A DNA stretch of 64,000 bases from a virus. A program made the position numbers and the translations under genes. The notes beneath the pieces are model-generated. The model was not told where the DNA came from. It did not search any database and was given only the letters and a program-made list of their open reading frames with translations. Positions 2,888-58,588 of the stretch are shown here, in pieces (positions within the stretch are counted from its first letter, which is position 1; every line of letters begins with the position of its first letter). The stretch lies in the IMG/VR virus record IMGVR_UViG_3300045988_082835. One strand, 5' to 3'.

Positions 2888-3289
2888 ATGATTATGAGTA
2901 AATGTAAAAACTTTTTAGATTATTTTGATTGGCTTGTAGCTAATTACCAAGAGCCAATCACTATTCCAGATGAAGTGCAAGAATTTTATAATATTCTTCG
3001 CTCACAGCAAGATATGCAGGTTGAGAAACCTCTCTTTACAGAAACTGGATTACAAATTCTTGAACATCTTCAAAAACATGAGGCGAAATCCTTAAAAGCA
3101 AAGGATATTGCAGATGGAATGGAGATTTCCTCAAGAAAAGTATCTGGCTCAATCAGAAAATTAGTGTCAGATGGTTTCGTAGAAAAATTTGGTTCTAACC
3201 CTGTTGTCTATACCCTGACAGAAAAAGGTAAAAACTTTGATATTGAGAAATATAAAGGAGAATTAAGTAATGAGCAAGAAAATGATTAA
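2888..3289 (+). CDS. hypothetical winged-helix-like DNA-binding protein (133 aa)
   Basis: ORF track; AAAGAGGAAATG ribosome-binding site. Confidence 0.45.
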   Translation: MIMSKCKNFLDYFDWLVANYQEPITIPDEVQEFYNILRSQQDMQVEKPLFTETGLQILEHLQKHEAKSLKAKDIADGMEISSRKVSGSIRKLVSDGFVEKFGSNPVVYTLTEKGKNFDIEKYKGELSNEQEND

Positions 3290-4226
3290 TAACACTCACA
3301 TCGAAGGGTATGTCTATGAACATAAACTTGAAAAGAAGGTTTCTGGAGAGAACTCTAAAAATCCTGGAACCGAATTTATTAATGGTATCTTGAGAATTGC
3401 CACAGACGATGATATGTTGAATGTTGTCGATGTTCATTTTAGCTATGTAACTGAGACAACTAAGAATGGTAAAGCAAATTCAACTTATGGAGTTCTTTTG
3501 AATATCATTGATGGAAAGATTGGTTCCGTAATGGAGCATGGTAAGGAAAACGCAGGAAAGATCCGCGTTGATTCCGCTATTGGGCTAAATGAGTGGTACG
3601 ATAATAACACTAATGGCCATCCTCTTGTAAGTGTCAAGAGAAATGAGGGCGGATTCGTCCATATAACTCAAGAGTTGGCAGAAGAAAAGAATCGTGCTAC
3701 TTTTGATGTCGATATGGTAATTACCGGAGTATTGCGCGCGGAAGCAGATGAAGAGCGCGATCTTCCTGAGAAGGTTACTGTAAAGGGATGCGTATTTGAT
3801 TTCCGCGGAGCACTTCTTCCCGTCGAGTTTAGCGTATATGCTCCATATGCACCGGAAAAGGCTTTGGATTACTTCGAGAATTTGGGAGCCACTTCTAGCT
3901 CTCCTGTCTTTACTAGAGTGCAGGGAATTCAGGTATCTAAGACTGTAGTTCGTAAAGTTGAGGAAGAGAGCGCTTTTGGTGACTCTAGAGTAAAAGAAGT
4001 CCGTAATTCTCAGCGTGATTTTGTAATTAACTGGGCACAGCCTGACATTTATGAGTGGGACAATGAGGAAACTCTTCTCGTATCCGAGCTTAATGAAAAG
4101 ATGGCTGCGCGTGAGGTTACTCTTGCTGAGATTAAAAAGCGTCAGGATGAGTATCAAGCAACAAAGGGTAATGCTCTAAGTGGAGCATCTACTGCCGCTC
4201 CTGCAAAGGGAGAATATAAATTCTAA
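3270..4226 (+). CDS. hypothetical protein (318 aa), possible ssDNA-binding or annealing protein given its position next to Sak4
   Basis: ORF track; no in-frame TAG; function assigned only from context. Confidence 0.35.
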   Translation: MSKKMINNTHIEGYVYEHKLEKKVSGENSKNPGTEFINGILRIATDDDMLNVVDVHFSYVTETTKNGKANSTYGVLLNIIDGKIGSVMEHGKENAGKIRVDSAIGLNEWYDNNTNGHPLVSVKRNEGGFVHITQELAEEKNRATFDVDMVITGVLRAEADEERDLPEKVTVKGCVFDFRGALLPVEFSVYAPYAPEKALDYFENLGATSSSPVFTRVQGIQVSKTVVRKVEEESAFGDSRVKEVRNSQRDFVINWAQPDIYEWDNEETLLVSELNEKMAAREVTLAEIKKRQDEYQATKGNALSGASTAAPAKGEYKF

Positions 4227-4255
4227 GAAAAGGGAGTTTATCTCCCTTTTCTTCC
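4227..4255 (+). terminator. rho-independent terminator
   Basis: aaaagggag-ttta-tctccctttt hairpin. Confidence 0.6.
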
Positions 4256-4283
4256 CAAATATTTTGATAAGGAGCGAATATAA

Positions 4284-4358
4284 ATGAGTTTGTTAGATAT
4301 TAAGCCTCATGAAGTATCAAGAGATCTGAGAGGTTATTCAGTATTCTTTTATGGTGAT
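4284..4358 (+). CDS. Sak4-like (AAA_24 / RecA-fold) recombination ATPase, exon 1
   Basis: AAGGAG ribosome-binding site; MSLLDIKPHEVSRDLRGYSVFFYGD. The reading frame ends in an in-frame TAA that is the first codon of the intron. Confidence 0.6.
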
Positions 4359-5099
4359 TAATCGTTAGCTAATATGGGTCACCTAACTCAGTGAACTATT
4401 GCTTAATAGGTGTAAAATTAATTGGTTAAACTTTTTCAATTTTCCCTTTCCTATTTTCAATAATAGTAGAAAAGAAAAAGGAGGGCTATAAAATGCCAAA
4501 AGGGAAAATTTCAAATCCGGGATGGATAACTTGCACTTGTCAGTATTGTGGAAAACAATTTCAATATTACAGAGATACTTCTGTAATTAGAAAAAGTTGT
4601 TATGAATGTATACCAGATGGTAGAAGTAATGATGCAGCTTTAATACGAAGGTTAATAAAGAAGAAAGCTGTTGAATATAAAGGAGATAAATGTGAATGTT
4701 GTGGAAAATCATATCCTTTATCAGTATATGATTTTCACCATAAAGATCCTAATTTAAAAGATTTCTCTTTAGGGGATAAGACATCTACCGTCAAATGGGA
4801 TAAAGTAAAAATAGAAATAGATAAGTGTATATTAGTATGTGCAAATTGCCATCGTCAAATCCATAGTGGAGATATTAAGTTAAATCAAGACCAGGAGGAA
4901 ATGCCTGCTAATAATTTTGCTAACAGGGAAACAGCTAACGGCAATCCTGTGCCAAGCCTCAAACAAGAGGAAGGTTAAGAGACTATCGAAAACCTATAAT
5001 AGAGTGAGTAGAGTAGAATGGAGATAAGCACCATTCGAAGCGCTGAGATCGTACTTTATAAGTATGATAAGATATAGTCCGGGGTTATCCGCTCACCCG
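4359..5099 (+). mobile_element. group I intron (741 nt) carrying an HNH homing endonuclease gene
   Basis: Exon 1 ends in U. Internal guide GUCACC (4378-4383) pairs with exon GGUGAU to form P1 with a G.U at the splice site. UGG (4375-4377) pairs with CCA at the start of exon 2 (P10). The conserved R (aGAGACUA, 4978-4985) and S (AAGAUAUAGUCC, 5069-5080) core elements form P7. The last intron nucleotide is G. Confidence 0.65.
4493..4978 (+). CDS. HNH homing endonuclease (intron-encoded)
   Basis: ORF track; AAAAGGAGG ribosome-binding site; zinc-ribbon CxxC pairs and an HH...CANCH motif. Confidence 0.75.
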   Translation: MPKGKISNPGWITCTCQYCGKQFQYYRDTSVIRKSCYECIPDGRSNDAALIRRLIKKKAVEYKGDKCECCGKSYPLSVYDFHHKDPNLKDFSLGDKTSTVKWDKVKIEIDKCILVCANCHRQIHSGDIKLNQDQEEMPANNFANRETANGNPVPSLKQEEG

Positions 5100-6005
5100 C
5101 CAAAGAGTGGTAAAACCACTATCGCAAGTAAGTTTCCAAAAGCACTTTTGCTTGCTTTTGAGAAAGGCTATAATGCATTACCTGGAGTATACGCCTAGCC
5201 AATTAATAGCTGGGGTGAATTTAAGAAACTGTTTAGTGAATTAAAAACTCCAGAAGTACAAGAAAAATTCCAAACTATTGTAATTGATACCGCAGACATT
5301 GCGTACGGATACTGCGAAAAGTTTATTTGTAGCAGAGAAGGCGTTGATACTATTGGTGATATTCCTTATGGAAAAGGGTATGCGCTTGTAAGTTCAGAGT
5401 TTGACGAAGCGATTCGTAAAATTCTACAACTTAACTATGGTCTTATTCTTATTTCTCACGCAAAAACAAAGACAGAAAAGAACGCAAAAGGAGAAGACAT
5501 TGCCTCATAGATTGTTCCTACTCTGGATAATAGAGGAAGATTAATTTGTGAGAGAACTTGTGATATTATCGGATATTCTCGTTCTGTTACTAATGAATCT
5601 GGAGGAACAGAAACAAGACTCTTTATGCGTGGAACTCCGCAGTATGTTGCCGGTTCTCGGTTCAAGTATGTACCAGAGTCTATCGAATTTACATATGATA
5701 ATCTTGTAAATGCAATTTCTAACGCCATTGATAGACAAGCAGAAGAAACTGGTGGACAGTATATTACAAACGAGGCAACTCAAGTTGTAACAGAGGATGT
5801 AACTTATGACTTTGATACATTAATGAGTAAGTTTAACGACCTGGTTGGAGATCTTATGTCTAAGAATCAATCTAACGCTGGGAAAATTACATCTATTGTA
5901 GATAAATTTTTGGGCAAGGGTAAAAAAGTTGGAGATTGCACTCCAGACCAAGCCGAACAGTTAGATTTGATTGTTCATGAATTAGAGGAATTATCCAAGA
6001 ATTAA
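5100..6005 (+). CDS. Sak4-like recombination ATPase, exon 2 (two in-frame TAG)
   Basis: Splicing gives ...FFYGD|PKSGKTTIASKF..., a canonical GxxxxGKT Walker A. The rest resembles AAA_24/Sak4 proteins; ends at TAA 6003-6005. Confidence 0.6.
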
Positions 6006-6102
6006 AATATAAGGAAGGAGAGAAAATTCTCCTTCCTTGATTTTTTATCTATTTTATGATATAATATTTATATAAGATTGTTATGAAAGGAGAGCGTAAT
6101 GT

Positions 6103-6636
6103 ATGGCTAAACACATGGTAAAATGTTTTTACTGTGGAGAAGTATTTGATGCATCAACTACACCATACGTTAAACCAAATTCAAGACGTTACGCTCATAA
6201 GACCTGTGCGCAAACGGCCGAGGAAAATAAAACGCAAGAAGAAAAGGATAGACAACTATTAGAAAATTATATAAAGAAGTTATTTGGAATTAACTGTATT
6301 TCTCCAAAAATTAAAAAACAAATTGAAACCTTTAGAAAAGATAATAATTATTCATATACTGGAATGTATAAAACTTTAAAATACTTTTTTGAGATAAAAG
6401 GTAATTCTATTGAAAAGGCTAATGGAGGAATAGGAATAGTTCCTTTTGTCTATGATGAAGCATATCTTTATTGGAGAGCATTATGGGAAGCAAGAGAAAG
6501 AAATGAGCAAATAGATATAGGAAAGTTTATTTTGCCTGTAAGAGAAGTCCATATAGAACCTCCTCAACGGCAACCAATGAAACATATACGAAAGCTATTT
6601 ACTTTCTTAAATGAGGAGGAAGCGCATGAAGAGTAA
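6103..6636 (+). CDS. hypothetical zinc-finger protein, possible helicase loader
   Basis: ORF track; CxxC...HxxC N-terminus; 3' end overlaps the dnaB start. Confidence 0.4.
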   Translation: MAKHMVKCFYCGEVFDASTTPYVKPNSRRYAHKTCAQTAEENKTQEEKDRQLLENYIKKLFGINCISPKIKKQIETFRKDNNYSYTGMYKTLKYFFEIKGNSIEKANGGIGIVPFVYDEAYLYWRALWEARERNEQIDIGKFILPVREVHIEPPQRQPMKHIRKLFTFLNEEEAHEE

Positions 6637-40104: not shown

Positions 40105-41793
40105 ATCAAAACAACTCGCATTAGTAGAGCTTATTGAAAATAAATCATAGTATTCAGAAGTAAGAACAAAAAATCTCTAACCTATCCCTCGATATTCTGC
40201 TATCAAGTCCTAATCAAGTCCTTCAATAAAAATAATATCAGGGGCTTCCATATTATATACGGAAGTTATATCAGAACCATTAACCACTTTAGTCCTTCTG
40301 CCTATTTCATTTATTGAATATTTTCCCATCTCTGAACCCGTATCTATAAAATCTAACCAATAGTTCAAATTTTCTGGATTGTTAAAAACATCAGGGTTCC
40401 AATGATCGTATTCATCCCATTTCTCATTCAATGGATCATATAAATTACGCCATTCCGCGATTAATTCGGAATCATAGTAGTTATCATATACGCTATTAGT
40501 TACCTGCGCATTTAATGCTCTACGGTACAGCTCTTCTCGCCACTCATCACATGGAGACCCGATTAATTTTGTTTCATATCCAGATACAGAGTAATCACTA
40601 GCTATATTATTAAAATCATATCTTACTATTAGTCCAGTTTCTTTATCACTAATAGCCCACATATAATACCCAGCCAAATCTATAATAGGTTTGGTATCAA
40701 TAGCTAAATGGTATCTAATGTCCACTTCTACATCAGATGTAGTTTTTCTTTTACCCCAAACATAAAAATCATTTTTAATATTATCAAACTTTGGACTGCG
40801 GGTTATCGCAGTCGTGGTATCAAGCTCGGTTAAAGAATATAAGAATTTAGCATTATTATAACTCTTTACATAGTTTGCTGGCGTAAGTTCAGTTAAAGGG
40901 CTTCCAGTATTAAGATAGTTCTTTATCTCCTAAAAGATAAAACGACCGTTTATATCATAGAAATATTCAAAATTTCCAAGAACATCCACTATCTTATCTA
41001 GTAATGCAGTTACAGTATCACCAGCATCTAAAATCAATTCACCGGGATATGTAAATTCTGTTTCTTTATATCCAGCATCCTATCCATAGCTTACCATACG
41101 CGGGAAGTCTGAGCTGGGAGAGAAATCCATACTCTCATAATTATTACTAAAATATACTGGTTTGTCACCAATATACTTAACCAACATTTTACAGGTTTCC
41201 TCTATATCTGTAATAATTATATTCTCTATAGCTTCCCCTCCCCAGTGGTTTACCGCTTCATATATAATCTGGAATATGGTCGGATATACAATCTCTATAT
41301 CTCCATCATTCTTCTATATGTAACTTTCATGGAGGGTAATAGAACCTGGAAAGGTACCTCCCGCAGTTCCATCTAATAAACACATCTTATCTTTTCCATT
41401 TATAGAAATTGTCCATCCAGAAGTCGATCTTGCTATTGATGCATTAGACAAGACAAATAGTCCGCAAGGAAACCAAATTATATCTCCATAACTAGAATAA
41501 GATCTTAAGGGGTTATTATATCCAACAAACACTTTAACCTTTTTGTTTATCGAAATCTCGTTATCTATATTCTCTATATCGCTATTATTTCCATCGGCTA
41601 GCATAGTTAAACTAATTGTTCTGCGCACTGAAGATGAACCATTAACACTTAAACTTCCTGCTGTTATGCGACCTTGTATCTCTCTAATAGGTTTTTCATC
41701 GAAAGAAAGCAAAATAATTTTCGCATAATGGGTTTTAATGTTTAACTTATCAAGGGCAGTAAGAAATTCCATATCGTTTAAATAATCAAACAT
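40105..41793 (-). CDS. tail/baseplate protein (562 aa, about 6 TAG)
   Basis: ORFs 41314-41793 (AAGGTGGAA ribosome-binding site) and 40210-40725 share a frame and are joined across TAGs. Confidence 0.4.
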
Positions 41794-41797
41794 AATA

Positions 41798-44575
41798 CTA
41801 TTCCACCTTCATACGCATTTGATTTGTTAAACACTTATAGTTTATTACACAGAATTGAGCGCTTTCTAGAGCGATATATTTAATCATATTATCCAATGGG
41901 TTAAGTGTATATCTCCCTGTGGGACCGATTTTTACAGTAATAGGATTACTTCCATCAGCATTTGAGCTAAGAAGAATAGTAGTTCCTTCGTCTGCTTCTA
42001 TATCGAACAAAGTAATATCACTAAAAGTGTAATAAATCTCTCCGTCTGTTAGCCGTCCATCGCTACTTAATTCAAAGTGTGTATTATATATAAGCTCAAC
42101 TTGCTTTTGTGTCTCTTCTTTTATTATCTCGTAGATATTTACCGTTTTATATAGATTAAAAGTCGTATTATCAACAATAATATCTCCTTGTTTATCCCTA
42201 ACTAGAAATTTTTCCATATTCGCAGGAACATTACTAAATATGCGATATGTGTCACTATTCTTATAATCATAGTTATAAAACTTTAAAACACCATCTGTTC
42301 CTGTAAATATTCCAGAAATCTAACCCCAAATACGAGAAGCATCAATAGCAGAAACAACTCCCACTGAAACATCTTCAACCTAATTTAACTGACAAACATA
42401 ATTCACAATAATAGGAACTGTTGATGCAGATAGAGATAGAGAATTAACATTCTCACTTAAATGATACATTCTACCTGGTGCAACTAAGATCCTTGAACCA
42501 TTAACATTAATTTCAATAGTCGCAGATTCAGGCCCATTAAGAGCAAGAATTAAATTTTCACATTCCTCAATCTATCTATCATACTCAGAAGTATCTTCTT
42601 CATTACCTGCGGCTTCCGCTCTAAGAGCTTCTAATTCTAGTAGCTACGCGGTTAGATCTATCTTTGGGTATTGTTCAACTAGGATATCAGTAACCTAAAC
42701 TAAGTTTAGTTTATACCCTCCACCTATGCTAACCTCTTCCTATTCTCTTATCTTTGCGTATAAGTCTATATTTCGACCATAAATTCCGCTTATCTGCCCA
42801 AAGGAATTTATTCTATCTTCGCTTGCTAAACTCTCAAATTCACCAATATCAATTATATTAACTTCATTTAAATTTTCTATGGTGTTCTCTAATACTTCAT
42901 ATGCCGTAGCAGAAAAAGAATAGAGCATGCGGCCGACCGTATTATTCGGAGTCAAAGAAATATTAAGCAAGCCTATAACTATATTCCCTTCGGTTGGAGA
43001 CTTAAATAATTTATAGTTAAAATCATTTAAAAATTCTTCTACCTTTTCTCTAAAAGCTCTTTCAATGAAAACATTATCATCTGTTAAATCAGTTGAAATA
43101 GATAATTTACTCTCATTAGTTGAGACTTCTGAATGAGTTGTCTATCTCTCTTGACATTTTCCTCTAACCACATTTTTGATAGTAAACTTATCTTCTGGGA
43201 TTGCAAGTTTGCCATTATAATAAAGGCCATCATCATCTAGAGAGAAGAATGTCTAATATTCATCCATCTAAAAACTAATCAAACCAGAAATAGGAAATTC
43301 TGCATAGTAAGCATTACCATTCTAAATTAAATGAGGGTATTTATCTCCTAAAGTATCCTATTTACTTCTTAAAGTGGTATGTTTAAAGCTGGATAAGGTT
43401 TGATTGAGTGATAGTTTTAACTATACTCCATCTCTATAAATATAGCTGTGCTCAAAATCAACACTACGACCTTGGTTAGAGGTTTCATATACCTAGGAAG
43501 TCCGCAATCCTGCGGAGTTCTCTTGCTATATAGCGTATTTGTATCTAATTCCGCTTTCAATAATAAAATCGGTATAGATTAGTGAATCGTTCAAAACCTA
43601 ATTAGAAAATTTAAGATACTTCAAATCTTCCCATATCTAATAATTATCTTTCTCTGAACTTCTAGTTATTACATAACTTCCACTTAATCCATCTTTTGCT
43701 GTGCAAAAAATCTTTATACAACCATTCTCTTTGCAATATATATCGCTATCTTCAACTCTTATAGATACTCCTTCTAAATCACCTAGATAAGTTCGACTAA
43801 CAGAAAAATTATACTAATCAGACTCTCCCTCATAACCATTGACGGTAATAATAGAGTACACAACAGTATAATCTTCACTATTAGTTAATACTGTTTTAAA
43901 TCTATGAGTATCTGTATTATTAATAGAGCCATTATGCTAGATCCACCCAGAGCTTTCGATTAAATCACTGAGATCCTACGAAGAACCTTTGTATAAATCA
44001 AATTTATATTTATCCAATAATTCATTACTACTAGATTCAATCTTGTAACTGCCAATAAATAGCGGTGTTAAAGTTGCTTCTACTCGTTCTGTAGATATAA
44101 CATCTTCTCGCTTTGCCTCGTCGTTTTCTATAATAATAGTCGGAGTATCTATCGCTTTAATTACCATTACAGTAGACCATTCAGAGAAAGCTCCTTCATC
44201 TATTTGCTATTGTTTCCATGTTGCAAATTCATCTACCGAGGTATACATAGGATTAATTCCAAAGCGCATCTGCACTTTATATAAATACCCTGGCTACCAA
44301 GATTCGAACAATTCATTTTTATTGATTGATACAAAATACTAATTGCCCAGGGAACCAATAGCAGAGGGTGCTTTATAGATTGTCCCATCTGGGTATTGAT
44401 TTGTATTAACAATGCTTTTATTATTCGACTAACGCACTATTCTTACCTATATATGTCCTATATCATTAAAAGATGTAATTGACTGTAAGGTAAAATAGAT
44501 TTGATATACATTCACACTGGCTAGAAACGCTGGCTATGTGCTCTACAGAGTAGGCGGGTAAATACTAATTGGCAT
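41798..44575 (-). CDS. large tail protein (about 925 aa, many TAG)
   Basis: Continuous frame if TAG is sense; contains ORFs 41798, 42740 and 43976; GGAGG ribosome-binding site at 44580. Confidence 0.4.
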
Positions 44576-44640
44576 AGTTAACGCCTCCTTTTTCTCATCT
44601 AAGATATTTAAAAAATCTTATATCATTAATAAAGATAATT

Positions 44641-45806: not shown

Positions 45807-48800
45807 TTATGCAAACTAGGCATAAATACCTTTCTATCCAGATTTTGGTACATTCATGTTGAAATTTTCTGCATTTACCCAGATACCTGCTCCCTCAGCA
45901 TTTAAAGCTATATTTCTTGCAGACTAAAGAATAATACTCTATCCCTAATCAAGTGTCCTAATACCAATATTGTCAGTAACACCATCATCATCTCTACCTG
46001 GTACATATCCTAAAAATCCAAGATAAGTATTCCAGCGACCATGATCATTATAATATATTTGTACCTATTCTGTCTATACTAAGCCGTTAAACAATCTTGT
46101 AGTACCATTCTCTAATCCATCTTCACTAATAGTCCACCCGCCGATTTCGCCATTATCACAGGTTAAAGTAGTCGCATTAATATCTCCACTAATATCTACG
46201 TTATCAGATTCAAAATCCTCACATACAATCCTACCATTTGAATATAGAGTGGTTCCGCCTCCAGAGATTCTACTTGGACTAATAGTCCACCCGCCGATTT
46301 CGCCATCGTCTGCATAAATAGAGCCATTAATCGTTGCATTTTTACACTACATCTCACCTGAACTGGTAACATAAAAATAAGAAGAACCAGAGAAAACAGG
46401 TCTATCTGCTGTGCTGCTAGAACTAGCTCCAGCCCAGAAACGATAAGTTCCTGAACTTGCTATACCGGTTCTATAATTATCACTAGTTAACTTATTAGAA
46501 GAAAGAATCCAACCTCCAATATTTCCCTATTTAGCAGTAATTAATCCGCCTTTAGAAACAGAAAATTTAGCACTTGATGCTGTAGCACTTCCTGCCCAAA
46601 TAGCAAAATCATTATTATTAGTAGGAGTAGAAGTATTGGTTGGAGATTGGCTATTTAATTCAACTCTCGTTGAGCCAGAGCCGCTATATAGTCTATTGGT
46701 TTCAATAGTCCAACCATTAGATCCTGTTTTCGTTCCTCCAATTTTACCAGAAGAGGCGTAAATAGTCCCTGAAACTTCTGCATTGGTTGCTTTTACAGTT
46801 CCATTATATTTTACTGTAAAAGCTCCTCCGCCAATCTTTATAGCTTCGGTAGATCCATCTGCTTTAAGATCAGCAAGAGTAATAGTCATTCCATTAGAGG
46901 CATCCCCACCTTCTTCTGAAGAATTCCCTCCACCATAAATCTTCGCTGAAGTTCCATCAATAATGATCTATCCTCCACCACTTTTAGCTCCAAAAAACGC
47001 TGTTCCATTTTCCATTAAACCAAAAGTATTAACTCCAGCTTTATAACCATATAAACCTATTTTATCTTGAACGCTATCTTTTCCCATAACTACACCAGTA
47101 AAACGATTAAAACTATCTTTCTCTCCTGCTCCAATCTATGGAGCTAAGATATACTAACCATTTTCTTCATCAATTTGTAGCTATGTGCCATCCCATCCAT
47201 TTATTAGCTCATTGCCATATGTATCAAGATATAAAATAACGGGATGGTAGATATATTTTCCTTCGTATTCACATTTTAATAAAGCAATATTATTATCTTC
47301 AAAAATAAAACTAGATGCAGGTTCAAGATAATAAAGATTATCTTTTTCTTCAACTGTTAAAATTTCTTTTACAAGAGAAGAAATATTACGACTATAATCC
47401 TAATTATTAACAATAAATTCAATGTTATTGCTATAAAAGGATGGATTAACACCAGACGCAGTATATTTAATATAAGAAGGAATAGAACTAATATCAATAT
47501 TATTTAATTCATCATCACTAAAATTAACAGCAACATCAATAGGGTAATTACAGTAAATTTCATAGGCTCTATTATTCTTATTGTCATTAATAGTTACCTA
47601 AACTTTTACATATCCGCCTGCGGGATTTGAGATCAACTATGTTGTACCACTTGCTATTTTGCGGTCATCATTCTCGCCTTCCCGCAATTCAATATTAACA
47701 CCAGTCCATTTATAAGATAGGGTGTAATTACCATTATTATTGATTAATTCTCCATCTTTATATACATAGCATCTTATAGGTAATTCATTTACCCAAGATT
47801 CATCTCTATAAACTAATGGAGTTAATCCAGATAGTTTCAATCCAGTGTCAGGATCAAATGGTCTAATAGCACTTACGTATGTAGTACCATTTGTACCCTA
47901 ATCACCATCTTTTAAGAACAGAATTTCTTTTCGGAAAGAATATTCTTGCTCATCCATAGTGATTATACGAACTAAGATAGTATTATTGTTAAAATTAACT
48001 TTATACTTCTACTTAATAGTATAATGTAAAATATTACTATTGTCAACCCAGAGGTTTTCAATCATAGACTCGCTAGGATTATATCTTGAATTAGTAATAT
48101 CTTTTCCATCTGGACCAATCCATTCTACTTTATAAGAAGTTCCTACACCATCTTTCCAAGTTAAAACAACTTGAAGAGTACGTTCTTTTTCAGCGTCTTC
48201 AATAGCTATATCTCCATTTGCATCATATCTGAATGTATCTTCTCCATTATAGGTAATTGTTACATCTTCTTCAGAAGAGCTATTTGTGACAAGATGTTCT
48301 AATACAGAGATAATCTCGGTATGTTCTTTATTATAAACTCCACAAATAAAAGTGACAGAAGAGTACAATAACAAATTAGTAACTGTGATGGAATTTTGCT
48401 ATAATCCAACTGCTGTATAGCTTCCATCTGGATAAAGCATATACCAATCTCCAATAAGAACGGTGTTATCCGCATTGTTCTAAATTTGAATGATAATATC
48501 TTCTCCTACTGTTGTTTGTTTAAGCTGAAAATCATAGTTACTTGTTAAATTATATATCATTACTTCCGCACTCAATGTTACGCTATCATTATATATAACC
48601 ACTAATTTATACTACTTCTAATGTTTCACTTGCTCAGCCTTAAGTGTCATCGTATTGCTCTCGGACGCTGTGACGGGAGCCCATCCTACACCACCATTTT
48701 TATCGTAAGAATCGCTACCTAACAAAACACTTACATCTCGCTCAAACCACTTACATTTACAAGTTTGTTCATCTATTATATTATCGCCCTAATAAATTAA

Positions 48801-49727
48801 TCGACCAACTAAATCAAGAGAAGAGATCTCGTTGGTAAATGAATTTCCTTGCGGGGTCGAAATATCTAAATAATATAAATTATCTGTTAAATCTTTCTAT
48901 TCAACAAACTAAATCTCTATATCCTTTACAAAAATGTTAGGTACAGTTCTATTCTCTTTATCTGTAACTACACCAGATTCCACATAACGATCATAGACAA
49001 AATTTTCTTCAAATAACTTAATCTATTTAAGTCCAGTTAAATAATTTTTTTGAGCCTTAATAACCACAGATTGCGGGCTGTAGACCTAAAAGCGATAGGG
49101 ATCTCCATTAAAAGAACTTAAATCAAGCTTATAAGAAACTATATCTCCGCTCTTTGTAAAAAACTATATATCTAAACCATAATTTCCTTTGGTATGTTCA
49201 CAATGGAAAGTAGTTAAGAAAGAGGCTTTTATTCTAATAAGCTCATTGTTATTTGCATACTATTGGAATAGTCCATGATATCCTTCTTCATTACCACTAT
49301 AAATAATCTACTAACTTAAATCACTATCTGCTGGTGCGCCTGCTACGACGCCCCTTTCCGCATCTTTGTCATAATCATACATTGTATCAAATGTTGGGCT
49401 TTTTTCTATTATTGAATTAGAAAGCGACAGCATCTCTCCATATGATAATGATTGTTCATTTGTCTTACAAACAATTCTTTTTCTTGCAGATAAATCATCC
49501 TGGGGAATAGTAACATATACAGTATCCCCTACTTTATACTGCTTTTTTACATCATCCGCAAAAGCAGAAACTATATTTCCAGAATATTTAACTTTATACT
49601 CTCCGCTATCAAGATTAACAATACTACTAATCTCTGCTGAAATAGTCTTATCATAAGTTAATTTTGATAGTGCTTTATCAACTAGAATATCTATCGTCTA
49701 AAAGATAGATTCAGAAGCAGTATTCAT
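45807..49727 (-). CDS. giant tail protein (1306 aa) with a C-terminal beta-helix-like GGWTIS repeat region
   Basis: AAAAAGGAGG ribosome-binding site at 49735. Single frame (length divisible by 3) containing ORFs 48009, 47637 and 46527. Repeats GEIGGWTIS. Confidence 0.5.
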
Positions 49728-49755
49728 TATTTATCCTCCTTTTTCTCATAGGGAT

Positions 49756-49780
49756 AATAGGGGAGGAAATCTCCCCTATT
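49756..49780 (-). terminator. hairpin after the tape measure gene (terminator or attenuator)
   Basis: aataggggag-gaaat-ctcccctatt. Confidence 0.4.
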
Positions 49781-52700
49781 ATTCTTTTCTTCTATTCGCC
49801 CATTGAGTAGCATCATCCGCCAAACTACGAATAGCATCTTGAATTTCATCAGAAGATGTCGCATTGGGGAATTCAACTCGTTCAATATTTATATTTGGCT
49901 AAACCACATTATCTGTCGGCGCAATCTAGGTATTAGTTCCCAATCTAGATGCCATAATACTAGAAATAGATAGTGCGTTCCCGTCAAGAGTTTTCTCAAT
50001 AGAGGCTATAAAACTAGGTCCAAAGGCTCTCATAGCAGAGACCGCCGCCAAGATATTTTTCGTATCCTCTTGATTTAAAACTAACTCTTTTTCATGTAAG
50101 AAAGCTAATTTAGCATTATCAAATTCTCCAGTATATCCTCCAGTATCGAAGCCACTTATCTAACTTTCTTTTAGCCATCCATAAGCGGAATTATTGGACT
50201 GTACATGGATTGGATAAGGTCTACCCTTAGCTATGTTTGTTATTCTAACCTTTTTACCTGGACCGCGTCTACCAGCAGGATCAGTGCCATAAGAATCATG
50301 ATAGTAAGTTCCACCAGTATAAATAACTTCATCTCCTACTTCGGGGATTCCATTACCTCCTCCAGTTCCACTACTGGAAGATCCACTACCACTATTGCCT
50401 GAGCTACCTTTATCAGTATCAGAAGATTGACTTGAATCAGAAGAAGGCAAGTCATCTTTATCTATACTTCCTGCGCTTTCTATTGTGTTACCAGCAGCTC
50501 TAGCGGCTTCTTCAAGCGCTCTTATATATTCTCTGACTGAATCGGCCATATCTAAATACTCTTGACTTAAATCTTGAATAGTGCTTATCTATTCTAACAT
50601 CTAAGTAACGGCATTTGATCCAGCCTCAGAGCACAAATCAGTAGAAGTTGAAACATCGTCGATATAATCTTTTAAATCATCGAGACTTGTTCCAGTCTAA
50701 TCGGCTACTCCAGAAACAGTAGTTTGATAATCTTCCATCGCTCCGCTAGCTTCATCCATTGCATTAGATAAAAACTCTTCAAAGTTACCAGCATTAGCGG
50801 TCATATTGGCTAAGTCTTTCGCAAATACATTATCAAATAGGTCAATAAGTTTTGTATTACTTCCTACTATATCTTGAATCTACTCGTTATCTGATAGTAA
50901 CAAATCAATAATGCTAGAGCCAGAGTTAGCTATAATATCTTGAATTTCTTGACTTGTAATTCCAGTTAGGTCACTTACCTCGTCTCCCGCAACAATAGCC
51001 ATATCAATTAAAGCTTTATTGCCGGCTTCGGTCATATCCTTAATAGCGATCTATTTTTCGCTCTCTAAGTCCTTAACCTTCTGCGTATAATAAGAATAAA
51101 TTTCTTGCGCGCGAGCAGATCTTTCTTCATCAGTCAAGGTCATATCAGAATAGATTTCTTTTATCTTATCTTGACACTCTTGCCAAGTAGAAATAATCTC
51201 TCCTGTAACATCCTCTACCTGTTGCTTTGCTATATTATACCATTCGTTCTCCGCATCAAGTAAATTCTGCTCTGCGTCAGCTATCTGGCTCGCATCTGCG
51301 GTGTATTGATAATTCCAGTTACCTTGACTATCTCTCACTAGTCTAAGTTGATTTTTCGCATTTTGAGCATCTTCAAGTGCCATCTAAGCCTAAAGAACAT
51401 TATACTTAGCTTCGAGAATTTCTAAATCGTATTCAGATAAGGTATTGTTCTCTCTACGTATATCAATTTCCTCTTGTAGCTATTTTAACTAATCTTTCAT
51501 CTTAGAGTTAGTAGCCTTATCAATATCCTGTTGTAGTTTATTATACCAAGAAGATACCTCATACGCTTCATTTACTTTATCTAAATATCTATCCTCTTGT
51601 TCGATATAATGATCGAATTTGTCTTGTAGTAGATCTAATCCTACTCCACCAGAAACAGCCTATCCAAATTCATATACTGCTCTTTCAATAGCTTGAGTAT
51701 ACATCTCCTAAGCAGTCTCCATAGCAGCTTGCGCGGAACTTAACATAGCCTCTTGTGCTTCATTAAATTCTTCTAGTAGAGCATCTCTATTAGCTTTTAA
51801 ACCATCATATGCAGGATCGGTTTCATCTCCGCCTAATGCATCTAATGCAGCTTGAGCTTCCAATAGTTCTTGACGGATTCCGTCATACCATTGTTTATTC
51901 AGCTATGCATTGGCGACCTAAGCCTTCATAGTTTCTTCGCTTACTTCTTGAAGCTATTCAAATCCTTCTTCGGTCTTATATGTAACTCCCTAAAGAGCAT
52001 ATAATTCTTTGATGAGCCCTAGAACAGATTCATTATGATCAAGCTAATCAGTAAAAGCAGCAAATCTTTCTGACGCGGCATCTAATGCATCTGGTAGCAT
52101 TTCTTCAAGACCTTCTACCCAATCAAGCAAAGCCTCTGCGGTAGAAATCATTTTACCTTGTAAGTCAGATAACTTACTTACAATCTCATCAATATTAGTC
52201 GCATCTGTGGCATTAGCTAATTCTTCCTGATAACTTTTAAGGGCTTCTTCATAGCTCTTGATGATTTCAATGTTCTCGTTCATACTGTTTTTATCAATAC
52301 GAGCGACTTCCATTCCATGAGTTAGCTCATCACCAAAAGATTCTGCTATTTGTCTTGTTAGCTCATTAACCGCATCTTTAGCATCTTTTATATCTATCGC
52401 AACTTCAAGTTTATATTCAATCTAATTTAATCTATTATCTGCAATATTTCTTTCTAGCTCTTCTTGCTCATCTTTTACATCTTGAATCTTGTCAAGAGTT
52501 TCTTCATATTGAGCTAAAGCGTCCTAACGAGCCTAGAATAATTCATCAGCAACTTCTTTTTGTAATTGCCAACTATCATATTCTGCCTATCTAGCCTCCT
52601 ATTCATCTTTAGTAAGACTGCTAAACATTAATAAGAAAGCGTTGTAATCGGTTAAGAAGTTATTATTATAATCATCAACAATAGATTGAAGAACGTCTTG

Positions 52701-55700
52701 ATAACCTTCAATTTCTCCATTTTCATCAAAAGTAAGAGAATTGTTGAATAATCCTTGAAGGTCTGATCTATCTTTCTCAAGATAGGTCTCAGCCTCATCA
52801 AGCATCTTATTATAATTAGCTTGCTGTTTTTCTAACTCTTGAAGCTCTTTCTAATAAGCCTATAATTTCTTCGCTCCATATGCTCTATCTATATTATTAC
52901 CAATATCATCTAATAAATTATTCTAATTCTCAATCTCACGAGTTATTTCATGGTATCTATCTTCTATATCTTCAAGAGTTTTTTCATCTTCGGCATCATA
53001 TTTTGTACCTTCGTTATCTCCGCCAGAATCTTTATTTCTAATATTGTCTGTTGCTATTCTATTCGGATCTAATGCTCCATCAGGATCAAATGCAAATGGC
53101 TCCTAACCATAATCAAAAATACCATTCTATCCAGATCCCGTACCCTAAGAAGATAAATATGAACCAGCTTCTTTTAGAGCATTAGTAAAATTACCAATAG
53201 CATCTCCGCCCTCGCCGGAAATTTTTAATCCTAGAGTGGGAAGCTCAAAAGGAAGATCCGCTTTGCCAGCTAGCCAATCATCTATCTATAATTTTCCCCA
53301 TGATTTTACATATGGAGTAAAACCTAAATCATATTCAAAATTAGAAATTAAATCTCCTAGTGCTGTTAGAACAGCCCCAGCCGCCTATGAAGTTGAGCTA
53401 ATTGTATTAGCACTCTCGGACATAGTAGAATTAATAACGGCTCCAGCGATACTAGCATCAGTGGACATTGCTTGCATTAAAGCATCGGCGCTTGTATCTA
53501 GTCCATTTGCTAGCGTTACTCCCTAATCAAGAACACCCTAGAGAATCCTTTTATAAGATTCGTTATTAGTCTATTCTAGTCCTACGAGCTATTGTCCAAT
53601 ACTTGATACCATTGCCTAAAATTCTGTCGCAGTAGTATCGAAATTATTATCAATGGTAAAATCTATCGCTCCAAAGCTATCAGCATAGTTTAATAAGTAA
53701 TCGTAATTATCTACTAAACTATTTACAATTCCCATCATGTCTTGGGCATCGCTCACTTGTTTTTCCCAAGTATTTAAATTAGATATATCAGACATGGTTC
53801 TGGCATATTCTTCCTCAGAAATTGTAGTTTGATCTACTCCATCTTTGAGTTCCCAAACTCCGTCTGTATTTTTTGTAATATTCTAATTTAATTTAGACTA
53901 AGCCGTAATTAATGCTTTCGTGGCAGCGATTGTTCCCTCATAGTAATCATCCATATTGATGGTTCCAGATTTAAACTTTTTATTTAAATCTATCAGTCCA
54001 TCCCCTATAGACCCGGTTGCAGCGACCAAAGTAGCTTCATATAAATCAGTTTCTTCTATATTATCGTCAATTTCTTCGTTTAATCTATGAAAGCCTGCAT
54101 TTATATTACTTAATCTTTTATTAATCGTATCAAAATATTCTTGGGCAGATATTGCCCCCTCCTGATACGCTTTCGCATTATCACTAAGGGCCTATGTTCT
54201 CTCTTTAAACAATTCTACATCAGTTTCACTTGTAAACGTATAATCATTTATTGCATTTGAATCACTGGCTCGCGATACTAATTCATCCCACATATTAATA
54301 TAATTCTAGAGATAATCAGTATTTACCCCATATTTTTCTTTCATAGATTCTATTGTAGCATCAAGAATTTGCTCTTCTTGTCGTTCAGAATCTAAAAATG
54401 TCTAAAGAGACTAATTTGTTAGTTTATACGCATCTCCAACTTTAACAATATACTAAGCATATCTTTCATCTGCATTAATGAGTTCTTGAACTTGATCCAT
54501 GGTTAGATAGCCTTCTTGATCCTTATATGACTATAAGGCAGATTCAAGAGCACTCTAACTATTATTTAATTCTTCCAATATAGATTTTAAGTCGTCTATT
54601 CCCTTTACATTTATATTTATTTCATTAATTTTATAATTATCTAAAAATTCCTATAATTCTTCAACCGCATCAAAATTATCTATATTGACATCCATAAGGA
54701 TTTCCCAATCCTCATTTGATAGAGAATCAAAATCAAAATCACTAAATTTACTTTCTACTTTTTCCTTTGCTTCATCTACTCTGCTATCTACAAAAGTTAA
54801 AAACTCATCTACGCTGACTCCAGCTAACATTAATTCATTTTTAATGGATTCTGTTATCAAACCAGAGGCTGCACTAATATCACTACTAGCCAAAGTGCTA
54901 TAAAGCTAAGTAGAAATCTATTTAACTGATTGGTTATCTAAAATTGGTTTTAATATAACCTCTTCATATTCACTTTGACTGCCATAAAGATTTTTACGAA
55001 TAAGAGATAACTGCTCCTGCATTGAAGCTATCATTTCTGGATTATACTCAATAACCCCGTCAGTAACAGATTTAATATATGCAGCATAATCATCTTCTGC
55101 TTGCTATATAGCTTCAGAATTGTCAGTTACCCACTGTGCCGTAATCTATTCATTTTGAGTAACCCAATCTTGATACTCTACTAAGTAATCACGATAGGCA
55201 TCAGAATTTTTATCAAGGCCCTAAGTAATACTATTAAACCAAGTGTCTGCATCTACGTACTAATCTTTATAAGTATATCTATTCTATTCAAGTACAAATT
55301 GAGCATTTGGATCATTTAAATCCATGCTCTATTCTAACTCTTTAAACCAGTCCTAGTCTCCATTGTATTCATTCCAACTTCTCCACTAGGTTAAATCTGG
55401 TCCTCCTGCCAAACTCTTAGTAGATTTATCATAATTCTCTTCGATAGTTTTTGCCTAGGCTTTTTGCGCTTCTTCTGTTAACTTCTCTTGTAACTCAACC
55501 TATCTCTACAAAGAAGATTCTGCCTATTTAAGTTTTTCTAATTCTTCTTGTTCGACTATACTTAAAGAATCCTAATTATTTAATTCTTCTATTCTATCTT
55601 TCGTTGTCTATAATTCAGAATTTAAAGATTCTAATGCAGATTTCTAATCCTCATAAGCCTAGGTAGCACTAGATATTTTTTCTCTAGCCTCTTCTTCCGT

Positions 55701-58478: not shown

Positions 58479-58588
58479 AGTCCTTTTCCTCCTTTATCTC
58501 TACGATAAAACAAATAAGGCTCTTGAGAATTATATCTTCTCAAGAGCCTTTTAATTCTCTATCTAATTTGTAAATTTTATTAGATTTA

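Follow-up and report, generated by a model that had tools for sequence, protein, structure and literature searches.

In the 64,000-nt stretch of viral DNA analyzed here (the window), positions 4359-5099 very probably constitute an IA-type mobile group I intron, predicted to splice and to encode an active endonuclease, and inserted into the Walker A codons of a phage gene for a Sak4-like recombination/annealing ATPase. The insertion site in the Sak4 Walker A motif is apparently new, while the kind of element, an HNH-bearing selfish group I intron, is well known. That phage genes for DNA metabolism are invaded at conserved motifs by HNH-bearing group I introns is textbook knowledge (PMC3984707, PMC2504315), and the understanding of group I intron function is unchanged by this finding. 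Full-text literature searches found no description of an intron in a Sak4-like gene; both terms co-occur in a single paper, an SPP1 genome annotation. The Sak4 Walker A codons would thereby join the list of conserved phage sites colonized by homing introns.

Exact removal of the insert joins the two exons (Table 1) into a frame encoding a 326-aa Sak4-like AAA_24 protein, with the predicted ligated junction ...TATGGTGAT|CCAAAGAGT. This spliced product matched Pfam PF13479 with 135.3 bits (cutoff 27, E = 3e-39) over profile positions 2-195 of 195 and phrog_124 at 9e-52, in line with the Sak4-like ATPase proposed in the initial annotation of this DNA. An alignment to AAA_24 proteins, suggested there as a check, was free of gaps at the junction in comparison with 19 homologues. 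The intron breaks the gene within the Walker A codons, exon 2 starting with CCA AAG AGT GGT AAA ACC (P-K-S-G-K-T). Walker A, GDPKSGKT in the context YGDPKSGKTT, is intact in the joined product and absent without splicing, which bears out the claims that splicing restores the motif and that the unspliced downstream ORF has no proper P-loop.

Under the standard code exon 2 is not an open frame, since it contains two in-frame TAG codons (5196-5198 and 5508-5510). Both align with Gln in the homologues, with CAG and CAA at these positions in locus L239, and a 2904-aa ORF of the window holds 103 TAG codons, all of which suggests that this phage reads TAG as glutamine (genetic code 15). The Sak4-like gene would read through only with this probable recoding. 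No tRNA genes were found in the 64-kb window, so no suppressor tRNA was seen. The initial annotation had overlooked the two TAG codons and the apparent stop-codon recoding. Read with the standard code and without splicing, an essential-looking recombination gene breaks up into four apparent pieces (exon 1, the HNH gene and an exon 2 cut twice by TAG), and automatic annotation will miss it or call it a pseudogene. Several database entries for homologues are N-terminally truncated ORF calls, and at least one, P0050 (locus L008), derives from an intron-bearing allele.

The spliced product is 51% identical to a protein of Enterococcus phage VRE9_1, which shares the gene order phrog_2367/YorF-like, Sak4, phrog_4680/YorH-like and DnaB helicase; its Sak4-like gene is uninterrupted, however, as in most homologues. 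Between the window and L239, 138 codons of the Sak4-like gene carry only synonymous differences and 60 carry amino acid changes, a sign that purifying selection acts on both exons where the intron is present.

The intron was placed with the intron-free DNA alleles of loci L004, L005 and L009 and of phage VRE9_1; exon 1 is colinear with the intron-free alleles of L004, L005, L009 and L003. L004, at 95% aa identity the closest of the intron-free alleles, runs uninterrupted through the insertion site: window positions 3203-4357 match L004 1765-2921 and window positions 5100-6514 match L004 2923-4343. The uninterrupted site reads …TTCTATGGGGACCCTAAGTCTGGTAAAAC…, with TATGGGGACCCTAAGTCT around the insertion point. 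BLAST against the intron-free alleles put the break at 4357/4358 to 5099/5100. A boundary shifted by 1 nt (4358-5098), which preserves the frame and is permitted by homology, was rejected because it violates the rules of a U before the splice site and a terminal G.

With the boundaries thus set, the first intron codon is TAA (4359-4361), in frame with exon 1. P1 comprises 6 bp between GGUGAU (4353-4358) and GUCACC (4378-4383) with a U4358.G4378 wobble at the 5' splice site and is kept in loci L201 and L239, P10 pairs UGG (4375-4377) with the CCA of exon 2 (5100-5102) over 3 bp only, and the final base G5099 is the omega G. The initial annotation had named each of these features, and all were located as described. 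The pattern GCCAAGCC...GGAAGGT occurred once in the window and in none of 100 shuffles, and a search of the window for a second intron of the same class found none.

Removal of 741 nt, a multiple of 3, leaves the exons in frame, as would also be expected if the insert were an intein or were skipped by ribosomal bypassing instead of RNA splicing. We consider the probability of this negligible: the insert starts with TAA in the exon frame, and its length far exceeds the known bypass of about 50 nt in T4 gene 60. The in-frame stop codons effectively refute removal at the protein level or during translation.

Table 1. Features of the interrupted Sak4-like gene and its intron (window coordinates).
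Feature	Position	Strand	Remarks
Exon 1 of Sak4-like (AAA_24) gene	4284..4358	+	25 codons; ATG at 4284; end ...F-Y-G-D
Group I intron, 741 nt	4359..5099	+	Placed by intron-free alleles and group I rules
Internal guide sequence	4375..4383	+	Read from sequence; identical in L201 and L239 copies
P3 5' strand CUCAGUG	4387..4393	+	Pairs with CGCUGAG 5041-5047
Hairpin A, CUAUU-GCUU-AAUAG	4396..4409	+	Between P3 5' strand and GUGU motif
Hairpin B 5' strand AAAAUUA	4414..4420	+	Pairs with UAAUUUU 4912-4918
Predicted HNH endonuclease ORF, 161 aa	4493..4978	+	Shine-Dalgarno AAGGAGG 4478-4484; TAA stop 4976-4978; no TAG codons
Hairpin B 3' strand UAAUUUU	4912..4918	+	Followed by GC, then J3/4 (UAA, 4921-4923)
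P4-P5-P6 domain	4923..4975	+	P4 4923-4928/4945-4950; P6 4951-4953/4973-4975; P6a 4957-4960/4967-4970
P7 5' strand, R element GAGACUA	4979..4985	+	G4979 and G4981-A4985 pair with U5075-C5080; A4980 bulged; G-binding pair G4981-C5079
P7.1 and P7.2 (IA-type extension)	4986..5036	+	Split by conserved GAGUAGAGUA
P3 3' strand CGCUGAG	5041..5047	+	Class covariation
P8 hairpin	5048..5068	+	5048-5054/5062-5068
S element AAGAUAUAGUCC	5069..5080	+	J8/7 (AAGAUA) and P7 3' strand (UAGUCC)
P9, single short stem	5082..5098	+	GGGU 5082-5085/ACCC 5095-5098, then terminal G; read from sequence
Exon 2 of Sak4-like gene	5100..6005	+	301 codons and stop
Terminator-like hairpin with T-run	6010..6039	+	Directly 3' of Sak4-like gene

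The helices of the ribozyme were tested by covariation in a phage intron class of more than 100 members, the sequences of which were collected with patterns derived from the window. IMG/VR contributes more than 100 loci to this class and bacterial genomes 64 stretches, and the annotated recA/UvsX intron of Bacillus phage 0305phi8-36 is among its members; a search of a species-representative set of bacterial genomes for an identical copy of the intron found none. Covariation was drawn from the wider class and not from the intron's own lineage, because the three orthologous copies are nearly identical.

The closing pair of P7, the guanosine-binding helix, covaries and was formed in 112 of 113 sequences, as AU (73), GC (30), UA (7) or CG (2). 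P7 is built from the R and S elements, as the initial annotation had stated; the HNH ORF, however, is not flanked by them as claimed there, since both lie downstream of it. R starts 1 base past the stop codon of the ORF, and R and S together enclose P7.1, P7.2, the P3 3' strand and P8. In P7.1 (4992-4996/5000-5005, with a possible extension 4986-4987/5006-5007) the two outer pairs covary, in P7.2 (5016-5021/5031-5036) all 6 pairs covary and the helix is 91.8% paired, and P8 is 86.4% paired with changes on both sides of 6 of its 7 pairs. Taken together, 87.9% of cells in P7, P7.1, P7.2 and P8 were paired, compared to 61% after shuffling and 29-40% with slid partners, at a covariation score of 0.595 versus 0.15. 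An all-against-all covariation screen proved too permissive and gave mostly noise, while a stricter filter recovered these same four helices.

P3 was fully paired at 4 variable positions in 91 of 98 class members, compared to 4% in cross-sequence controls. P2 is absent, which is unusual: only UAA (4384-4386) separates P1 from the P3 5' strand, whereas the relatives L068 and L026 possess a P2 with a GNRA loop. Hairpin A has a flush stem in 94 of 95 class members, shuffled versions forming mostly 0-1 bp. Hairpin B, a 7-bp helix made up entirely of A and U that closes the loop holding the HNH gene, is supported by the class test; its stem abuts the conserved motifs GUGU and GCUAAC, an arrangement shared by L068, L083 and L001. 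A literature search for a 'P3.1/P3.2' nomenclature yielded nothing useful, and for this reason these two extra hairpins were left unnamed. P4 was paired in 99.3% of cases versus 23-44% with partners slid, and 2 of its 6 pairs covary. P5 is minimal, consisting of two Watson-Crick pairs (C4932-G4941 and G4934-C4939) around an A.G, and P6a is supported by the class hairpin test. At the place of P9, locus L008 has AACGU/ACGUU.

Minimum-free-energy folds contained a competing helix, CACCUA (4380-4385)/UAGGUG (4407-4412), that would sequester part of the guide. Such folding, with or without the ORF, was not used for the model, because it cannot represent the P3/P7 pseudoknot. The location of P7.1 and P7.2 between the P7 5' strand and the P3 3' strand reportedly defines the IA group in Michel and Westhof's classification. 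A single P9 with G5099 directly following it is a trait of IA3, for which one P9 stem and a short 3' end are the criterion (PMC2504315). The intron is assigned by its sequence to the IA type, with a mix of IA1 and IA3 features.

Rfam, proposed in the initial annotation as a means of verifying the intron, gave a divided result. No match was obtained with the whole window at the gathering threshold; in E-value mode RF00028 matched with 27.1 bits (E = 1.1e-4), compared to a gathering score of 50. In this alignment the P4-P6 region was placed with high posterior probability, and P1, P2 and P3, the 5' third, were misplaced inside the ORF. The P3 derived from it (UUUUG at about 4914-4919 with CGAAA 4987-4991) was rejected: the true P3 3' strand adjoins P8 and covaries with the strand upstream of the ORF, and within the class UCGAAA is conserved as a segment that is single-stranded or flanks P7.1. 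Only 2 of 13 class members tested with RF00028 passed the gathering score (L187 with 78.5 bits, L173 with 53.1 bits), and 11 were missed. In L187 the model paired the P3 3' strand with that of hairpin B, which implies that the sub-threshold score reflects the architecture of the model. Since RF00028 misses most tested members of the class, surveys of phage metagenomes relying on Rfam will undercount introns. The group I identity claimed in the initial annotation is upheld by the boundary rules, the sub-threshold RF00028 match, homology to an annotated phage intron and the class covariation.

The ORF lies in the loop of hairpin B between P3 and P4, continues through P4-P6 and stops in J6/7, so that the hairpin B 3' strand, J3/4 and P4-P6 double as coding sequence for residues from about 140 to 161. 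Several class members carry ORFs in P8 and not in hairpin B. The predicted protein matched phrog_2255 at 2.2e-26 (aa 12-138), in agreement with the HNH assignment of the initial annotation, and eight other HNH phrogs as well; matches in the PDB to the LtrA En domain and McrA were weak, and the score against Pfam HNH (PF01844), 19.1 bits, was below the cutoff of 21.4. The sequence contains CECCG...FHHKD...N...CANCHRQIH, which we take to represent the catalytic HH...N...H motif and both CxxC pairs.

Phage genes split by free-standing endonuclease genes are known, and the ORF comes with a Shine-Dalgarno sequence and a stop codon of its own. It is nevertheless highly unlikely that such an HNH gene divided Sak4 into a split gene or pseudogene without RNA splicing, the intron likeness being a relic, even though the Rfam gathering score was not reached. 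About 250 nt of non-ORF sequence form a complete, covariation-backed group I core, and the boundaries conform to the rules for the U.G pair and the terminal G. Exon 2 itself lacks a start codon or ribosome-binding site from which a complete P-loop could be translated; the sole nearby ATG (5064) is within the S element and would yield HPPKSGKT. Moreover, the HNH ORF of L239 is frameshifted, yet its ribozyme is intact with a single, pair-preserving substitution, and the purifying selection on both exons in intron-bearing genomes likewise argues against a disrupted gene.

The intron is present in loci L201, L239 and L008 and absent from L004, L005 and L009. Two related phages, L201 (contig IMGVR_UViG_3300045988_084596, 146 kb) and L239, have this intron at the identical position with more than 99.7% identity (1 and 2 differences, respectively), although their exons differ by 14-25%. 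Across 4350-5794 the window and L201 differ at one position, A5017G. The identical flanks are asymmetric, extending over 9 nt on the 5' side and 695 nt on the 3' side, in exon 2; exon 1 has 8 differences in its 75 nt. Both ribozyme substitutions, A5017G and C5041U (in L239, giving a G.U pair), keep pairing. Asymmetric exon co-conversion tracts have been described for such introns (PMC2504315). The one-sided 695-nt exon tract together with the near-identical intron is, as far as sequence comparison can tell, the footprint of recent homing, which would make it a clean natural case of very recent intron transfer between phages 14-25% apart.

A real group I intron that only splices, its HNH protein being inactive or off-target here and the near-identity resulting from ordinary recombination among co-infecting relatives, is somewhat unlikely. 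Introns regularly pass through a stage at which they lose the endonuclease gene (PMC2504315), which the frameshift in L239 would fit, and both the sub-threshold Pfam score and the origin of the last ~22 residues of the ORF in ribozyme core sequence, outside the HNH domain, agree with an inactive enzyme. On the other hand, the window and L201 have identical, intact ORFs that presumably retain the catalytic and CxxC residues. The identical block is moreover centred on the insertion site and strongly asymmetric, as break repair with co-conversion gives, which favours an intron that both splices and homes.

We infer both ribozyme catalysis and endonuclease activity from this anatomy. In the proposed mechanism, the guide GUCACC would form P1 with GGUGAU at the end of exon 1, and an external guanosine bound in P7 would attack after U4358. 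G5099 would then occupy the guanosine site, with P10 (UGG/CCA) positioning exon 2 for ligation of the exons into a message for the intact 326-aa protein, whose P-loop reads GDPKSGKT. Ribosomes entering unspliced RNA would halt at the TAA that opens the intron in frame with exon 1, and this halt is thought to allow the ribozyme to fold. The predicted targets of the HNH enzyme are intron-free Sak4 alleles, which it would cut or nick close to the Walker A codons, and upon co-infection repair from the intron-bearing genome would copy the intron along with flanking exon sequence.

The recA/UvsX-like intron of Bacillus phage 0305phi8-36 (ORF241, intron ORF029) belongs to the same ribozyme lineage, window positions 4942-5080 being 75% identical to it in DNA. 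It shares the succession of P3 5' strand, AAC, hairpin A, GGUGU, hairpin B, GCUAAC and P4 as well as P7.1/P7.2 before the P3 3' strand, is likewise housed in the gene of a recombination ATPase of the RecA superfamily, and has an endonuclease ORF as well. However, its host gene is RecA/UvsX instead of Sak4/AAA_24, its guide sequences differ, and its ORF, the 'mobile intron protein' gp29, is upstream of P3 and not in hairpin B. In the relatives L068 and L026 the insertion site is the conserved RecA segment GN|PETT(T/S)GG, in contrast to Walker A in the window. The 0305phi8-36 intron is related to the recA intron of Bacillus anthracis/cereus; it has been linked to that of B. anthracis, which was reported to splice in vitro and in vivo and was itself classed as a mix of IA1 and IA3 (PMC2504315).

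A broader proposal, which we regard as quite unlikely, is that introns with hairpins A and B between the P3 5' strand and J3/4 make up a large IA class of phages, one member of which, in TAG-recoded gut phages, moved from RecA-type genes to the Sak4 Walker A codons and spreads by homing, dragging along hundreds of exon bases including TAG (Gln) codons. If so, exon co-conversion would carry recoded codons between phage genomes, and spread of the intron would be confined to phages sharing TAG recoding.

Group I introns of Bacillus phages SPO1 and SP82 encode the HNH enzymes I-HmuI and I-HmuII, which drive homing. Enzymes of the I-HmuI type have a domain make-up unlike that of the 161-aa zinc-ribbon HNH protein of the window. 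Cyanophage Pf-WMP3 has an IA2 group I intron with the HNH endonuclease I-PfoP3I driving homing (PMC3428280). Like the window intron, those of SPO1/SP82 and Pf-WMP3 encode HNH proteins and occupy a conserved phage DNA-metabolism gene, which in their case is DNA polymerase. The intron ORFs of phage T4 encode the GIY-YIG enzymes I-TevI and I-TevII or the HNH-family I-TevIII and are located in the P6a or P9 region. Their introns, in the nucleotide-metabolism genes td, nrdB and nrdD (sunY), are of IA type with a looped-out endonuclease ORF and exhibit homing with exon co-conversion (PMC3984707). As in the window, an in-frame stop codon follows soon after the 5' splice site of the T4 introns, but these have P2 and a P3 directly beside J3/4, neither of which applies to the window intron, and their hosts are not recoded.

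The interrupted gene begins with an ATG at position 4284 (+), preceded by AAGGAG, and its first exon comprises 25 codons ending in TTC TTT TAT GGT GAT at 4358. As the initial annotation had stated, exon 1 runs directly into an in-frame TAA (4359-4361) that is the first intron codon. The frame resumes at 5100 with CCA AAG AGT GGT AAA ACC and closes with TAA at 6003-6005, joining of 4284-4358 to 5100-6005 yielding a protein of 326 aa with TAG translated as Q. The in-frame stop codons of the insert exclude an intein or translational bypass. Assignment of the host gene as Sak4-like was borne out, with Pfam AAA_24 (PF13479) covering the spliced protein over the entire profile (3e-39) and PHROG 124 'Sak4-like ssDNA annealing protein' matching at 9e-52. 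A database search returned thousands of homologues, the top one 95% identical and likewise 326 aa long. Enterococcus phage VRE9_1 encodes an uninterrupted Sak4-like protein with 51% full-length identity in the same gene order as the window (phrog_2367, Sak4, phrog_4680, DnaB).

Alignment of the spliced product to homologues, which had been proposed initially, gave a gap-free junction in 20 sequences, with F22, G24, K27 and G29-K30-T31-T32 invariant. The closest intron-free allele, L004, is contiguous in DNA across the insertion (window 4357 and 5100 correspond to L004 2921 and 2923), as are loci L003, L005-L007 and L009. Protein homology alone also permits a 1-base shift (4358-5098, giving YGEPK), which was rejected as it lacks both a U ahead of the 5’ splice site and a terminal G. 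We chose 4359-5099 because it is the sole option with both features, in line with the earlier claim that the intron ends in G (G5099). Five database 'Sak4' ORF calls (P0043, P0048, P0050, P0055, P0079) are N-terminally truncated and start within or just past Walker A; P0050 comes from the diverged intron-bearing allele L008, and P0043 traces to L009, an intron-free allele in which gene calling settled on a late start. The Sak4 stop codon is directly followed by a strong terminator-like hairpin (13 bp and a T-run) within 6010-6065, overlapped by a promoter-like site of the next gene (TTGATT, 17-nt spacer, TG-TATAAT).

Judged from its sequence, the insert is a mobile group I intron of the standard kind, equipped with a putative HNH endonuclease gene (PMC3984707), and the predicted fold includes two extra hairpins, A and B, between the P3 5’ strand and J3/4.

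Structural elements of the intron model (window coordinates)
Element	5’ strand, position or sequence	3’ strand	Strand	Remark
P1	4353-4358	4378-4383	+
P10	4375-4377	5100-5102	+
J1/3	UAA			no P2
P3	4387-4393 (CUCAGUG)	5041-5047 (CGCUGAG)	+
Hairpin A	4396-4400	4405-4409	+
Linker A to B	GUGU
Hairpin B	4414-4420	4912-4918	+
Linker after B	GC
J3/4	UAA
P4	4923-4928	4945-4950	+
P5				minimal
P6	4951-4953	4973-4975	+
P6a	4957-4960	4967-4970	+
J6/7	UAA			also HNH ORF stop codon
P7	G4979 and 4981-4985	5075-5080	+	A4980 bulged
P7.1	4992-4996	5000-5005	+
P7.2	5016-5021	5031-5036	+
P8	5048-5054	5062-5068	+
J8/7	AAGAUA
P9	5082-5085	5095-5098	+
Terminal G	5099		+

This fold is backed by covariation among phage IA-type introns sharing the same layout (the class). 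P3, scored as the four variable bases before GUGAAC against the four after (C/U)GC, is fully paired in 91 of 98 members through 59 different strand combinations, compared to 4% of mismatched sequence pairs used as a control. Across a 113-sequence alignment, 87.9% of P7/P7.1/P7.2/P8 cells are paired (shuffled columns, 61%; slid partners, 29-40%), with a covariation score of 0.595 versus 0.15, and the P7 closing pair alternates between AU, GC, UA and CG with a single exception in 113. P4 is paired in 99.3% of cells and two of its pairs covary, P6a forms at least 4 flush bp in 81 of 84 distinct hairpins (2-3 bp in most hairpins with shuffled interiors), and both hairpins A and B lie flush against conserved flanking motifs in 95 members. 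Between the window and two related phages bearing the same intron, L201 and L239, A5017G and C5041U are the sole ribozyme substitutions, both retaining a G.U pair. CACCUA at 4380-4385 can also pair with UAGGUG at 4407-4412, rivalling P1 (guide sequence) and hairpin A; this helix shows up in minimum-free-energy folds.

The Rfam check proposed initially gave a mixed outcome: nothing in the window matched at gathering threshold, but in E-value mode RF00028 was recovered at 4846-5091 (27.1 bits, E = 1.1e-4), with P4-P6, R and S aligned at high confidence and the 5’ part forced into the HNH ORF. Only 2 of 13 class members tested reached the gathering score; the misses (L068, L026, L083, L136, L152, L155, L161, L167, L171, L201, L239) include compact ORF-less introns. 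The low scores arise because the model expects the P3 5’ strand to adjoin J3/4, and the two intervening hairpins are not represented in it. In L187, which scores 78.5 bits, RF00028 matches the P3 3’ strand to the 3’ strand of hairpin B in place of its true 5’ partner, a pairing impossible in L068 and in the window.

The HNH ORF (4493-4978, +, 161 aa) is preceded at 8 nt by a strong Shine-Dalgarno motif, AAGGAGG, and begins inside the hairpin B loop. Its codons from residue ~140 onward overlap the 3’ strand of hairpin B, J3/4 and P4-P6; PHROG HNH profile matches end at residues 138-141. The claim that R and S flank this ORF is therefore wrong, since it runs from the hairpin B loop through P4-P6 and ends at J6/7. 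Reading frames that extend into the core of an intron have precedent (PMC3984707, legend to Figure 2). Its central part (4670-4864) shows 71-73% DNA identity to each of the 15 Lak megaphage (Prevotella phage) records, which are unannotated. In L239 the ORF is frameshifted by a 1-nt deletion aligned to window 4545 while the ribozyme is intact; the endonuclease gene is apparently in decay there. A gene split without RNA splicing is contradicted by this retention of the ribozyme beside a decaying endonuclease gene, by the covariation-backed intact ribozyme in the window, and by exon 2 having no start of its own.

Two in-frame TAG codons occur in exon 2 (5196-5198 and 5508-5510) and were absent from the initial annotation, whose observation was otherwise largely correct and whose interpretation is supported. 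Both positions are Gln in the closest homologues, and CAG and CAA in L239. With TAA and TGA alone as stops, long ORFs tile the window, which also encodes DnaB helicase, DNA polymerase III alpha and the anaerobic ribonucleotide reductase NrdD. One 2904-aa ORF contains 103 in-frame TAG codons, other large minus-strand ORFs 27-32 and replication genes 0-3; TAG-rich examples are 49779-58493 (-), 45807-49730 (-) and 41786-44617 (-). L201, L239 and L005 have in-frame TAG codons as well. This codon usage indicates that TAG serves the phage as a sense codon. No suppressor tRNA was seen in the window because no tRNA gene was found within its 64 kb.

L201 (IMGVR_UViG_3300045988_084596, 86% identity) and L239 (IMGVR_UViG_3300029726_000071, 75%) are syntenic with the window and have the same intron at the same site, the 741-nt intron differing by 1 base in L201 and by 1 base and a 1-nt deletion in L239. 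Window and L201 are the same throughout 4350-5794 except at 5017, divergence returning from 5795, and exon 1 differs at 8 of 75 nt. The shared tract, which includes both Sak4 TAG codons, is interpreted as a one-sided co-conversion product that extends 9 nt 5’ and 695 nt 3’ of the insertion site. All three intron-bearing alleles read TATGGTGAT before and CCAAAGAGT after the insertion point, where the closest intron-free allele has TATGGGGAC and CCTAAGTCT, every difference being synonymous. Between the window and L239, 138 codons show synonymous-only differences versus 60 amino-acid changes, implying that the spliced frame is under selection in intron-bearing genomes. Locus L008 (1-110; logan SRR30347327_271840) carries a diverged intron 3’ end (P7.2 GAAGAGG/CCUCUUC, P9 AACGU/ACGUU) at the same Walker A site of a 71% identical Sak4 gene, and the site has therefore been occupied longer than recent spread implies. 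A full-text literature search found no report of an intron at the Walker A site or in the Sak4-like family; by this search, insertion site and gene family are apparently unreported for such introns, in a phage that apparently recodes TAG. The case is chiefly of value for annotation and for its clear homing footprint.

In DNA, window 4942-5080 shares 75% identity with Bacillus phage 0305phi8-36 at a site annotated 'UvsX-like recombinase; coding region interrupted by a mobile intron', which lies immediately downstream of that phage's 'mobile intron protein'. That intron corresponds to the recA intron of Bacillus anthracis/cereus, which mixes IA1 and IA3 features and was reported to splice in vitro and in vivo (Tourasse and Kolsto, PMC2504315). 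Two IMG/VR pattern scans found at least 120 and at least 119 stretches, so the class is large; in bacterial genomes it occurs mainly in Bacillota. L068 and L026, the nearest relatives without an ORF among the matches listed, split a RecA-type gene between GVMYGN and PETTSGG, and the L083 intron splits ribonucleotide reductase after NPC. In these relatives the guide fits the local exon (e.g. GGAAAU/GUUUCC in L068), and thus the window intron is a lineage member retargeted to Sak4. Long hairpin B inserts are rare among the members listed (the window, L201 and L239, L198, L206), others having ORFs in P8. The insertions in L198 and L206 (276 and 663 nt) may be independent ORF invasions of the hairpin B loop. 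Loci L260 and L283, from a 147-kb contig of an uncultured Oscillospiraceae MAG (CANROC010000007.1), comprise at least three class introns within ~8 kb, a density suggestive of a phage or prophage heavily colonised by introns.
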